Position numbers and translations under genes: made by a program
The notes under the pieces: model-generated
Databases searched by the model: none
What the model was told of the DNA's origin: nothing
The model's input: only the letters and a program-made list of their open reading frames with translations
Shown: piece after piece, positions 20,411-59,660 of the stretch
How the letters are laid out: each line of letters starts with the position of its first letter
Numbering within the stretch: position 1 is the first letter of the stretch
Assembly: GCA_964016885.1 (NCBI GenBank)
Contig: OZ024743.1
Coordinates: 88,846,001-88,910,000 of the forward strand
Source: Eledone cirrhosa
Lineage: Eukaryota
Reading direction: 5' to 3'
DNA: 64,000 nucleotides

Positions 20411-20795
20411 AAAGGAACAAAAAATCAGTGTTGCAGCATATACATATTTAATTGCATATTACATATGTTTCACTGTTGATCAGCTCGAGGGACAATCGAT
20501 TAATGATCGAACCTGACTCTGGACTTGGAAGCTCCTCAGATATGTGTTAACATGTAGACTCGCTATGTTAACACATATCTGAGGAGCTTCCAAGTCCAGA
20601 GTCAGGTTCGATCATTAATCGATTGTCCCTCGAGCTGATCGACGGTGAAACATATGTAATATGTAATTAAATATGTATATGATGCAACACTGATTCTTTG
20701 CTCCCTTATATATTATTATTATTGATACTCTGCTCCCCAAGAGCATATCAGCATATCACCTACGGACGCAATTAATTTGCACCTTTAATACCTAT
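20411..20795 (+). mobile_element. PLE-like remnant: about 143-bp inverted arms (20411-20553 and 20565-20707) plus a 3' tail
   Basis: Near-perfect palindrome with an 11-nt spacer; hammerhead fold in each arm. Confidence 0.75.
20573..20664 (+). ncRNA. Type-I hammerhead ribozyme with extended helix II (antisense twin at 20454-20545)
   Basis: ACATAT-CTGAGGA-(61 nt)-GAAAC-ATAT-GTA-ATATGT; 6-bp helix I, GUA cleavage triplet. Confidence 0.72.
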
Positions 20796-20939
20796 ATACA
20801 CACACATATATATAGTGGTAGAATGCTGGTAGGTTATATCCGCAGTAGAGCACTCAGTCCATAGGACGAGTTTAATGATCCGTTTGAGGTGAAACAAATT
20901 GTTCTCGGAAATGGTGTATTAACTGTTGTGGAACTACTT

Positions 20940-21410
20940 ATCATCATCATCATCATCATTTTACGTCCGCTTTTCCCTGCTTGCAAGGGTCTTATTCAGC
21001 ACAACATCTCTCCACTTGTCATGGTCCTTCGTCATCTCCACCGTGAGCTTCAGCAATCTGAGGTCGGTTCTCACCACCTCCGCCCATGTTTTTCGTGGTC
21101 TACCTCTACCATGTCTTTCTTCAACTGGCATTTCCTGGCACTTCTTCACCCAGTGGTCATCCTCCATGTGCATCACATGTCCATACCACCTCAGTCTCCT
21201 CTCCTGTACATTCTATCCCTCTCAGACACAGTTTCTCTCTCAACACATTCATGCTGGGTTGTTCACGCACATTGACATTGCACATCCAACGGAGCATGCT
21301 TGCCTCATTTCTCTCCAGCCGTCGCATATCCTCTGCAGTTGCTGCCCATGTCTCACTGCCATGCAGTATCGCGCTCCTCACACAGGCATCATATAACCGG
21401 CCTTTCGTAC
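20940..21410 (-). mobile_element. 5'-truncated RTE family A
   Basis: Homologous to 637-1127 with frameshifts; (ATC)n tail at 20940. Confidence 0.9.
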
Positions 21411-21544
21411 TTATATATATATATATATATATATATATCATCACCATCATCATCGTTTTTTAATGTCTATCTTTCACAGTAGCATGGGTTAGATGGGTTT
21501 GTCCCACTTGAGGCAACTTGGGTCAGGTAACTGTGTCTTGCTTA

Positions 21545-23234
21545 TCATCATCCTCATCATCACCGTTTTACGTCCGTTCTTCCACGCTAGCATGGGTTAG
21601 ACGGGTTGTCCTGTTGTGTGTAGTGTCTGGTCGGCTGACCATGCCTTGCTCATACAGGAACTGATTTGGCTTGATTTCTACAGCTGGATGCCCTTCCTAA
21701 CACCAACCTCATTTACAGTGAGTGCTGGGTGCTTTTTCGTGGCGCCTACACGTCCACTTTACAGTGTGGGCTGGGTGCTTTTTTGCCGTGGCACCTCCAC
21801 GACCACCTTGCGGTGGAGGGTGTGGGGGCATACTGTTTATATGCTTCAGCATGTACCCATGGGAGGTCGGGTACTCTGTATTACTGCGTGACGCCAGAAG
21901 TCACGGTCGTGTGTCATTGTCTTTGAGAGGTGTAATTGGGTAAGGTCGGCTTTTATCACCTCATCCCAGGTCATCTTGGGTCTCCCCACTCCGTGGTTTC
22001 CATCAACTTCTAGTGCTCTGCACCTTTTTATGCAGCTGTCATCCTTCATACGCATCACATGTCCATACCAGCGCAACCGCCTCTCCTGCACACAGCATTT
22101 GATTCCTCTTATGCTCAGTCTCTCTCTCAATTCATTTATGGTTTGTCGTTTGCGTATATTACTGTTACACATCCATCGGAGCATGCAGGCTTTGTTTCTC
22201 TCTAATCTACGTAAGTCTTCCACCTTCAGCGCCCAGGTCTCACTACCATGCAACATCGCTGTTCGGATACACACATCATACAGTCTGCCTTTCATTCTGA
22301 GGGAGAAGCCTTTTGCAGCTAGCAGTGGTAGTAGTTCCCTAAACTTCTTCCATCCCGTTCTTACCCTAGTTATTGTACTTCCTGAACATCCACCTCCGTT
22401 GCTAATTCGGTCACCTAGGTAGCAGAAGCTGTCTACTGTTTCTACAGGGCCCTCCCAGAGATTGGTGGTACTTGTTTCCTGTGGCTGTTTGCTGCTTGCT
22501 GTTTCAGCACAGCTGCTGCATGTGAATCCTACATTCTTAATTAAGCTTCCTGAGATCCCGCTACATCTCTTGTGTACCCATTGTTTGCATTTGGGGCAGA
22601 GAATGGAGTTCCTACCTACACCTTTCCTACATACTGAGCAAGGCCATTTCCCTGAGGGGATCTGGGTTCTGTTTTCTCGTCTACTTACAAGGACCTTAGT
22701 CTTTGTCATGTTGACTTTGAGACCCTTTCTCTCTAGTCCCTGCTTCCAGGTTTGGAATTTATTCTCTAGTTCTACCATAGATTCAGCTATGAGTGCGAGG
22801 TCATCAGCATACAGGAGTTCCCATGGGCATCCGGTCTTAAACTCCTTCGTTATTACCTGCAGGACTATGATGAACAGGAGAGGGCTAAGAACAGAGCCCT
22901 GGTGGACCCCAACCTGTACGCTAAATTCCTCGCTATACTCATTGCTAATCCTAACTTTGCTGACTGCTCCCCGATACATGGCTTGTACCGCTTTCACAAG
23001 CCATTCATCTACTCCTAGTTTTCTAAGAGCCCACCAGATTACAGCACGTGGAACTCTGTCAAAGGCTTTCTCAAGGTCGACAAATGCCAAGTAGAGTGGC
23101 TTACTTTTAGCTAGGTACTTTTCCTGTAATTGCCTCACAAGGAAGAGGGCATCAGTGGTGCCTCTTCCTGGTACAAACCCAAATTGCATCCCGTCTATAT
23201 TCACCCGGTCCCTAATCAGCTGTGCTATAACTCG
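21545..23234 (-). mobile_element. 5'-truncated RTE LINE, family C; open RT ORF 21846-23234
   Basis: QFGFVPGRGTTDA, AFVDLEKAFDRVP, GVHQGSVLSP, YADD and a Cys-rich CSVC..CPKC..HKRC..CSSC insert. Confidence 0.95.
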
Positions 23235-23261
23235 TATATATATATATATATATATATATAT

Positions 23262-57765: not shown

Positions 57766-58236
57766 CATATATACTAATATACAAGATATACTAATATTAA
57801 ATAGATCTAACAATATATTCTATCAACCATCACAAATGTTCATCCATTTGAAAAGCTCTCCTGAGCAAAGATGTCTGACCATTTGTCATGAATCTTTTGA
57901 ATTTTATTTTATAAATAATATTTATAGTGTCTAATAAGTCATACATTTAGTTAATTTCTCTCCCTCTCTCTCTCTTTCTCTCTTTATATATATATATATA
58001 TATATATATATATATTTATGTGTGTGTGTGTTTTATCTCTATTTTCCATGCTTGCATGGTTAGACGTGTTGTCACATTCTGAGTGAATATATATATATAT
58101 ATATATATATGTATGTATATATGTATATATATATATATATGTATATATATATATATCACCATGTTTACACTCTACTAATGTATTGAGCACTTTACTAACT
58201 GTGGTTGCCCCCAATTGAACCCGGGACTCACATATA

Positions 58237-58490
58237 TCATCATCATCATCATAGTTAAACGACCGTTTTTGATGCTAGCATGAGTAGGACGGGTTGTCCC
58301 TATTGGAGAGATCAGGTTGGAGGACTGTATTTTTCTTACACAGGACTGATCTTGGCTTGGTTTCTACAGCTAGATGCCCTTCCTAATTCCAACCACATTT
58401 ACAGTGTGTGCTCACGTATATGATCACTTTATCACTTTACAGCGTGGATGAGGCACTTTTTGTCATGTCACCAACCCAACCACTTTACAA
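58237..58490 (-). mobile_element. Degenerate RTE 3' UTR
   Basis: (ATC)n tail, gctagcatg hairpin and gatgcccttccta motif. Confidence 0.75.
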
Positions 58491-58634
58491 TACACACATA
58501 TATATATATATACATACATGTATGTATATATATATATATATATATATATATATATATATATATATATATATATACATATATATACATATATACATAGTGT
58601 AGATATATATACACATATATATATACATATACAT

Positions 58635-58915
58635 ATAACAGGTCCATTCATGTTGACATCTCTTATCTATATATATATATATATATATAGATAAGAGATA
58701 TCAACTTGAAAGGACCTGTTATTTTTATCTAAAGACATTTCTTTCCAAGTCCACCCGCCCGTCCCCTCAATCTATATTAATTTCTCATTCTTTCTTCTGA
58801 TGAAGGACTAGCATCCAAAGCGTTAAGACCCTCTTCCTGCTATATCAAGCGTTAACCTAATATATACCTTCCATATACTGTACTGATTGTGTTGTTATTT
58901 CTGTTTACCTTTTAC
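58635..58915 (+). mobile_element. PLE-like remnant: palindrome 58635-58722 and degenerate hammerhead 58793-58828
   Basis: TCTT-CTGATGA-a-GGA..TCC-aaagcg-TT-AAGA (GAAA box mutated). Confidence 0.55.
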
Positions 58916-58924
58916 ATACATATA

Positions 58925-59660
58925 TATATCAACTAGAAATAGATTGACATATATCTAACCCATGCTAGCATGGAAGAACGGACGTAAAACGGTGATGATG
59001 ATGATGATATATAAAATAAATACATGGAACAATCGCAGGGAATAATTTGTAAAGAATGTAAGCACACATAGCTAGGTAGGTAACTAATTAAAGTTTGACT
59101 AGAACTTCAAATATAGATACCTTTAAAATGATTAATCTCCTTTGTATATATTTCTTTAAGTAAGAAATATATTTCACCAATTAATCAGTAAATCACAGTA
59201 GTCAAATCCTGGATGGTCACAAAAGGAGAAGAAAATAACTATCTGCGTTTACAAAGCAAATTCAAAACTCAGATTTGCATTTGCTTTGTAAACGCAGATA
59301 GTTATTTTCTTCTCCTTTTGTGACCATCCAGGATTTGACTACTGTGATTTACTGATTAATTGGTGAAATATATTTCTTACTTAAAGAAATATATACAAAG
59401 GAGATTAATCATTTTAATAGGTATCTATATTTGAAGTTCTAGTCAAACTTTAATTAGTTACCTACCTAGCTATGTGTGCTTACATTCTTTACAAATTATT
59501 CCCTGTGATTGTTCCATGTATTTATTATATATATATATATGTCAATCTATTTCTAGTTGATATAAAATGCTCGGATCTATTCATTGGAATCTTTGAGCTT
59601 ATTCTACAGTGGATATGGCGCATGTCTCTCAGACATCACAACCCTTAATTTAATTTTGTG
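58925..59660 (+). repeat. Near-perfect inverted repeat, about 285-bp arms (58925-59261 and 59279-59564) plus tail; left arm holds an RTE 3' end (58955-59008)
   Basis: Direct observation; the PLE-like architecture is inferred. Confidence 0.9.

Follow-up and report, generated by a model that had tools for sequence, protein, structure and literature searches.

Nine inverted repeats, several of them bearing sequences that resemble hammerhead ribozymes, raised the question of what had placed them in a single stretch of the genome of the octopus Eledone cirrhosa. The stretch, hereafter the window, comprised 64,000 nucleotides (assembly GCA_964016885.1, contig OZ024743.1, positions 88,846,001 to 88,910,000, forward strand); it sits on a 379-Mb contig of a 3.0-Gb genome, and about 75% of it was repeat by a rough mask. 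An earlier note, made from the sequence alone, had assigned the repeats to several unrelated families of Penelope-like elements (PLEs). Each palindrome very probably consists of two 5'-truncated 3' ends from a single high-copy family, placed back to back within a (TA)n run, with five families tied to PLE proteins of the Hydra or Neptune type, three others likely of the same kind, and each pair likely derived from one insertion event.

Inverted repeats, families and pair geometry

All nine inverted repeats were present at the places first reported. The copies at 23340 and 38137 belonged to a single family, so that the nine sites gave eight families, lettered A (20411), B (23340 and 38137), C (32047), D (46306), E (48007), F (49391), G (58635) and H (58925). 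The plurality of families was thus upheld and their unrelatedness only in part, since two sites shared a family and six families shared a tail hairpin. The features of the nine sites were as follows (ORF, open reading frame; UTR, untranslated region; LINE, long interspersed nuclear element):

20411-20704: family A inverted repeat, 93% identity
20411..20795: family A pair; the (-) arm, 20411-20553, is inverted, and the (+) arm, 20565-~20720, is direct and followed by a tail that runs to 20795
20573-20664 (+): family A type-I hammerhead of the direct arm, with a 61-nt stem II; the hammerhead is present in both arms
23340-23510/23986-24156: family B inverted repeat, 88% identity
23257..24156: family B (Hydra-type) pair, tail 23257-23339 and arm to 23510 (-), then 3' UTR and direct arm to 24156 (+)
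24044-24139 (+): family B hammerhead with a U3-A8 core; the left-arm copy is broken
31980..32183: family C, palindrome 32047-32183 (85%) and tail 31980-32046 (-); short and ORF-less, with a degenerate hammerhead
38054..38201: second insertion of family B, tail 38054-38136 (-) and 65-nt palindrome 38137-38201 (77%)
46306-46656/46774-47138: family D inverted repeat, 95% identity
46306..47196: family D (Neptune-type) pair, inverted arm 46306-46656 (-), direct arm to 47138 and tail to 47196 (+)
46944-46986 (+): family D minimal hammerhead
47963-48032/48224-48284: family E inverted repeat, 80%, only ~26 nt of which is family sequence
47986..48256: family E (Hydra-type), main copy 47986-48224 (-), hammerhead 48012-48089 (-)
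49391-49539/51460-51608: family F inverted repeat, 99%, its right arm split by an RTE LINE (~49625-51455)
49391..51694: family F (Hydra-type) palindrome, centre near 49583, tail 51609-51694
49436-49501 (-) and 51498-51563 (+): family F hammerheads
58629-58728: family G inverted repeat, 90% identity
58629..58918: family G (Neptune-type); an inverted 37-nt piece of the 5' part and a direct copy at 58692-58918 (+) lie on either side of a (TA)n centre
~58794-58831: family G hammerhead, with G12 and A15.1 altered in the window copy
58925-59564: family H palindrome, 98%, with a tail to 59660 (+); a 55-nt RTE 3' end splits the left arm

A (TA)n or (CA)n flank was found on at least one side at 9/9 sites, in agreement with the TA setting described earlier; the left flank of 20411 was the (GAT)n tail of an RTE element. 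The extension of one arm by a tail was seen at 7/9 sites, the exceptions being 48007 and 58635, and the tails proved to be family sequence and not unique. In family E the short opposite arm (48224-48249) was joined to the last bases of the tail, which was otherwise almost wholly deleted. The spacer of the D pair codes for the final ~29 residues of the endonuclease.

In all eight families the 3' ends were fixed and the extent of 5' truncation varied; partial copies stood inverted or in tandem, and a tail was optional. Two discrete 3' ends were measured in A (~155/231 nt), B (171/254), C (66/133), D (365/423), F (149/235) and H (294/388), and with weak support in G (175/227); E also had two ends. 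Tail length, the gap between the short and the long 3' end, was 52-95 nt. Among 181 opposite-strand pairs in seven families, 159 had their 3' ends outward and 22 inward, and the outward pairs carried one tail in 132 cases, two in 11 and none in 16. Most of these queries held the tail, and the count was therefore redone with tail-free queries: exactly one tail was found in 18/19 pairs, with tails on 28/72 E and F copies, while the tail-free A query gave 20 loci and no pairs. The 3' flank opened with a dinucleotide run in 451/519 copies.

Inverted 5'-truncated copies, one-sided tails and (TA)n targeting are published PLE features (PMC8557442; comparisons throughout refer to the accessible parts of the papers cited), and in Penelope-13_HM the inverted 5'-truncated copy leaves a hammerhead on each strand (PMC8557442). 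What is new here against those features is the 3'-outward orientation and the one-tail-per-pair rule, both quantified. Tails in the window were also longer than the 30-40 bp of PMC8557442. The arrangement is standard and mostly known PLE biology; the shared tail hairpin and the one-tail rule are worth following.

The arms were multicopy in the genome. A first look yielded 2526, 3971, 4977, 1916, 2191, 857, 957 and 2820 candidates for families A to H, respectively, which are not copy numbers; the best 40 were scored per genome search. Upstream of five of the eight families (B, D, E, F and G), and in sense, lay PLE ORFs with fragments of the reverse transcriptase (RT) and/or of the thumb and endonuclease, which together with the multicopy arms bears out the proposed PLE origin. 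The GIY-YIG endonuclease was C-terminal in all five; hence they are not Naiad elements, which have an N-terminal endonuclease and no canonical hammerhead. By the motif definitions of PMC8557442 (for Hydra, its section 11), D and G had the Neptune pattern (RT, C-x4-CxxC linker, GIY-YIG with CCHH), and B, E and F had the Hydra pattern (CxC-x5-C linker, CCHH absent), together with the Hydra features CxxC and CxH around a conserved E/N and a (TA)n target. Endonuclease and hammerhead of family F were co-directional at six loci (L264, L265, L266, L272, L278 and L279), and the endonucleases of B and F were 34% identical. Atlas neighbours of the F protein, molluscs among them, scored 0.97, some carrying GIY-YIG or HTH_animal; the D RT was recognised only weakly there (recognition 2117, under 2300). 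Pfam GIY-YIG matches were weak for D and G (E-values 0.0015 and 0.004). The PLE copies were broken, and no intact ORF was seen in the fetched loci.

Families B, E and F thus resemble Hydra-clade PLEs such as Hydra-1_Obim, Hydra-2_Amil and Penelope-13_HM (Craig et al. 2021, PMC8557442) in their C-terminal GIY-YIG without CCHH, the CxC-x5-C linker, the (TA)n target and a hammerhead near the 3' end. Unlike the Hydra PLEs listed there, E and F have 3' UTRs longer than 1 kb, and B combines a U3-A8 core with a long stem II. Families D and G resemble Neptune-clade PLEs in their RT, C-x4-CxxC, GIY-YIG with CCHH, the extra base after A9 in a minimal hammerhead and microsatellite targets.

Families A, C and H are likely PLEs as well, judging from their tail hairpin and end pattern, and A is probably of the Hydra type by its hairpin. 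Family A was walked ~900 nt upstream into a TA-rich UTR in which no ORF was met. In family C (~145 nt), 28/28 non-reference copies found with a tail-only query stopped at or after a common 5' limit a few bases before the core. The family H unit was 535-544 nt and ORF-less, with partial tandems at 4/5 loci checked. Since C is short with a fixed 5' limit and H is a short ORF-less unit, both look non-autonomous. As short, ORF-less elements with PLE-type ends, C and H (~540 nt) are comparable to non-LTR retrozymes (bioRxiv 10.64898/2026.07.22.740005) and to non-autonomous Chlamys elements such as MRC1. An active non-LTR retrozyme is defined as at least two tandem units, each with a complete hammerhead (bioRxiv 10.64898/2026.07.22.740005); with neither an intact hammerhead nor long tandem arrays, C and H therefore fall outside that definition. 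Many F copies began ~65 nt before the hammerhead and others extended over more than 1 kb (L081-L100, L191-L220), a clustering of 5' ends which suggests that truncation has a hotspot there or that F includes a short, non-autonomous subfamily; the 5' ends of G clustered similarly.

The ORF-less families invite a different reading, namely that the palindromes are DNA transposons resembling miniature inverted-repeat transposable elements, with the arms as terminal inverted repeats and hammerhead-like sequence acquired by chance or capture. A, C and H are so far without an ORF, and when the whole C palindrome was the query the top 40/40 hits were palindromic with nearly the same centre. That query itself held the palindrome, however, and the idea that C spreads in fixed palindromic form was discarded as an effect of the query: the tail-only query found an inverted arm, with variable junctions, in 18/29 copies and none in 11. 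Five families, moreover, run into RT/GIY-YIG ORFs, and the ends are asymmetric, with one tail. This reading is highly improbable.

Hammerhead ribozyme folds

A relaxed type-I hammerhead scan of the window gave 8 hits at a score of at least 10, compared with a mean of 0.2 and a maximum of 2 in shuffled sequence (n=60). The relaxed descriptor was adopted after a strict one had detected family F alone. Six of the 8 hits lay in palindromes (both arms of 20411, and 46948, 48078, 49493 and 51506), and those at 36387 and 39706 look like chance. The U3-A8 core of family B was seen in an alignment of 15 copies and not in the scan. Complete type-I folds were thus predicted from sequence in five families, A, D, E and F from the scan and B from the family alignment, which matches the five claimed before. 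The remaining hammerheads were imperfect: C was degenerate, without a proper stem I, G had two core changes in the window copy, H was a relic, and the 38137 copy of B retained the 3' part only, the core being absent. The D tail also contains a stretch that resembles a hammerhead (47160-47195); it was set aside, its core differing in most copies.

Both core boxes were intact in 35/46 copies of A, 5/12 of B, 35/43 of D, 19/24 of E, 88/98 of F and 14/31 of G. In an F-like set of 18 hand-picked distinct sequences, both boxes were invariant and 97.4% of cells paired; two stem II pairs changed on both sides (7 cells), a value reached in 0/500 shuffles, while pair-count measures were not above shuffles. 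The earlier note had tied its reading to a conserved core and helix covariation, and both were found, as invariant cores and as stem II covariation in the superfamily of the 49391 copy. The right B arm of the window showed one apparent compensatory change each in stem I and stem II relative to most B copies. The arms of this pair (24044-24139 against 23340-23510) differ by 12%, and this divergence and the two changes together hint at two templates or at hairpin-guided repair.

Among the features described for minimal PLE hammerheads are a stem III that is palindromic or else very short, one additional base following A9 and a U3-A8 variant (Cervera and De la Pena 2014, PMC4209133), an arrangement in pairs on opposite strands 100-700 bp apart (PMC4209133), and low activity or a need for protein (PMC4209133, PMC11167929). 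Unlike these, A, B and E have a stem II of 36-61 nt, B has a 5-bp stem III that might let it fold as a monomer, and E and F are without the usual G10.1-C11.1 pair (PMC4209133). An octopus Hydra family with a different hammerhead has been reported (PMC8557442), and 31 recently active Penelope-like families are given for O. vulgaris in a paper whose accessible part does not mention hammerheads (PMC13282606). Literature searches for octopus PLE hammerheads found none beyond the papers cited. The families had been called probably uncatalogued; by eye, the hammerheads of B, E and F all differ from those in the Hydra table of PMC8557442, and the families are new relative to that table.

In ~1.1 Mb of fetched loci, a sample enriched for such elements, 187 hammerhead-like sites fell into 31 clusters. 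About 25 further type-I clusters lay in locus flanks (e.g. L280:2899-2949, L300:136-185, L258:330-395, L162:814-883 and L276:2498-2563), several of them with U3-A8. The genome appears rich in PLE families, with hammerhead remnants common among them.

The tail hairpin and the origin of the arms

Six families (A, B, C, E, F and H) carried at the start of the tail a bulged hairpin in which RCTC is followed by a stem-loop of 3-5 bp, a bulge of 2 nt and GAGY, located 4-7 nt past the short end (~15 nt in A). The tails of D and G, both Neptune-type, were without it. In the insertions listed above it was located as follows:

23311..23334 (-): tail hairpin, family B
38108..38131 (-): tail hairpin, family B
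51613..51632 (+): tail hairpin, family F
59569..59598 (+): tail hairpin, family H

The pattern gave 5 matches in the window, all within PLE tails, compared with 0.52 per shuffle (n=50). With sequence-only anchors, at least 3 upper pairs were found in 16/56 clusters at a bulge of 2, against 4, 3, 5 and 1 at bulges of 0, 1, 3 and 4; some of the 56 clusters are variants of the same families. The supplement of PMC8557442 gives six novel Hydra consensi. Inspection by eye placed the hairpin behind the hammerhead in two of them, Hydra-2_Amil (coral) and Hydra-2_Ajap (sea cucumber), and at the extreme 5' start in Hydra-1_Ajap; Hydra-1_Crog (copepod) had a near match, and it was not seen in the ends shown there for Hydra-1_Obim and Hydra-1_Amil. 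The accessible text of PMC8557442 does not mention such a hairpin for Hydra PLEs, and literature searches, subscription papers, Repbase and Dfam aside, found no description of it. The hairpin likely acts as a copying signal.

In the preferred mechanism, the GIY-YIG endonuclease would nick the TA target on both strands, and reverse transcription would be primed at either nick, a far start giving the arm with the tail and a near start the tail-less arm; the two truncated cDNAs would then join in the middle. The hairpin would be bound by the Hydra protein or would set the near start; a Hydra protein that recognises it would also mobilise the ORF-less families C and H. In vitro, a Poseidon protein nicks either strand and extends it, with two internal start sites that delimit the tail, and the hammerhead is dispensable for insertion (PMC11167929). 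The window copies themselves are most likely inert remnants.

The main rival to both-strand priming, though an unlikely one, is that the inverted arm was made by fold-back copying of the first cDNA, or later by DNA repair or gene conversion. In A, C, D, F and H, the two arms of a pair had derived bases in common 1.7-5 times more often than copies paired at random (for D, 2.09 against 0.42 per 100 nt; for B, just 1.84 against 1.39, n=5); this greater likeness of paired arms, the near-perfect hairpins at several centres and the 58635 arm, a copy of a 5' piece only, would suit such an origin. Many arms, however, are separated by 100-1500 nt of element sequence as spacer, the tail-less arm ends at one internal site across many independent loci, which suits a second RT start over random fold-back, and both-strand priming has been shown in vitro for another PLE (PMC11167929).

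Several observations weigh against the reading of the palindromes as both-strand PLE insertions, or against parts of it. The short arm at 58635 copies the 5' part, a departure from the usual pattern. Pfam gave no RT family in the PLE fragments, no endonuclease above cut-off, and no GIY-YIG match for B, E and F. The clade labels are drawn from motifs and not from a tree, and D and G could belong to Nematis. No ORF was reached for A, C or H, and an endonuclease upstream of the A copy L295 was rejected as the parent of A, having its own hammerhead and end and no tiling with other A copies. An Rfam scan, proposed in the earlier note as a check, returned no hammerhead among 135 matches at E<=5, just microsatellite-driven miRNA matches; minimal PLE hammerheads probably lie outside the Rfam models. 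In vitro the two strands did not differ in start site, which leaves the one-tail rule unaccounted for (PMC11167929). Lastly, among 23 other hammerhead-anchored families, a count weakened by many single tail-less copies that end before any tail, the hairpin was downstream in 5 (one B-related, one E-related) and upstream in 3, and two well-sampled families (16 and 12 copies) were without it.

A broader proposal, for which belief and doubt are about equally balanced, is that Hydra-clade PLEs have in common an RNA signal not described so far. It would be a bulged hairpin lying 4-15 nt inside the tail, with a covarying upper stem of 3-7 bp between RCTC and GAGY and a bulge of 2 nt on the 3' side, kept in mollusc, coral and sea-cucumber elements. 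The signal would set or mark the internal RT start, explain the one-tail rule and license the moving of C and H; 3'-outward double insertions would keep the ribozymes they carry silent and may provide a major part of the double-stranded RNA (dsRNA) on which ADAR acts in octopus.

Genomic setting and predicted double-stranded RNA

The remainder of the window held further PLE fragments and other repeats:

13802..13916 (-): further C-type copy, tail hairpin 13835-13853
56336..56466 (+): further family B 3' end
12934-13019: family B fragment
58148-58230: family C fragment

Young RTE-type LINEs with (GAT)n tails and a PHD-like finger after the RT lay at 21544-23234, 49625-51455, 58954-59008 and 59741-60815, two of them inside palindromes F and H. 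A near-complete L1/Tx1-type LINE (ORF1-like, AP endonuclease, RT, zf-RVT) occupied 32190-37800 (-), its 3' end abutting palindrome C, and a second 3' end lay at 38304-38414; this LINE is possibly TA-targeted. Long minisatellite arrays were found at 9991-11784, 17028-19005, 42548-45540, 53542-55048 and 28759-30110, with units of 37, 64, 41, 52 and 173 nt, respectively, and clusters of short repeats resembling short interspersed elements at 38480-39370, 40658-40787, 27845-27963 and 47633-47742, with a weak tRNA match at 47632-47693. The unselected 60 kb upstream held 25 inverted pairs against 12 in the window, which is not unusually rich in PLE-type inverted repeats.

A gene with RING, B-box and filamin domains, which we take to be TRIM2/3-like, starts ~890 nt right of the window end on the + strand. 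Its first coding exon is preceded by a polypyrimidine tract and AG, a splice acceptor, and therefore an intron ends there; the window may be a 5' UTR intron of this gene or upstream DNA. The share of TRIM exon words found in RNA runs was 0.92-0.99 in four and at most 0.10 in 20. No host exon was recognised among the unmasked window segments on visual inspection.

Predicted folding paired the bases of the hammerhead region to the upstream antisense arm in A (92/92), B (88/96), D (41/43), F (66/68) and H (51/51), a range given as 88-100% for these five families, with weaker capture in C (42/54) and G (18/37). In a 3'-outward pair, transcription from either side passes through the antisense arm before it reaches the sense hammerhead. 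Any read-through RNA would thus be expected to enclose the ribozyme in a long duplex, a possible substrate for ADAR. Octopus has very high hyper-editing and dsRNA potential, and a heavily edited Penelope is reported from a lizard (PMC5625713).

A host function, in which the palindromes would be retained within an intron of the TRIM gene to serve as dsRNA regulators or as ribozyme switches, would fit the proximity of that gene behind its splice acceptor and the editing reports just cited. Against this, the copies decay like neutral repeats (core boxes intact in only 14/31 copies of G and 5/12 of B), LINE insertions break two palindromes, and the adjoining 60 kb holds about as dense a set of inverted pairs or denser (25 against 12). 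Such a role is quite improbable, and the reading of the palindromes as remnants of PLE insertion is preferred.

The tail and the inverted copy of PLEs are a long-standing mechanistic puzzle, and the cross-phylum hairpin, together with the one-tail rule, gives the existing in vitro assay something definite to test. The hairpin would also serve as a simple classifier of ORF-less repeats as Hydra-dependent. Thousands of self-folding PLE remnants are a candidate source of the unusually high dsRNA and editing load of the octopus.

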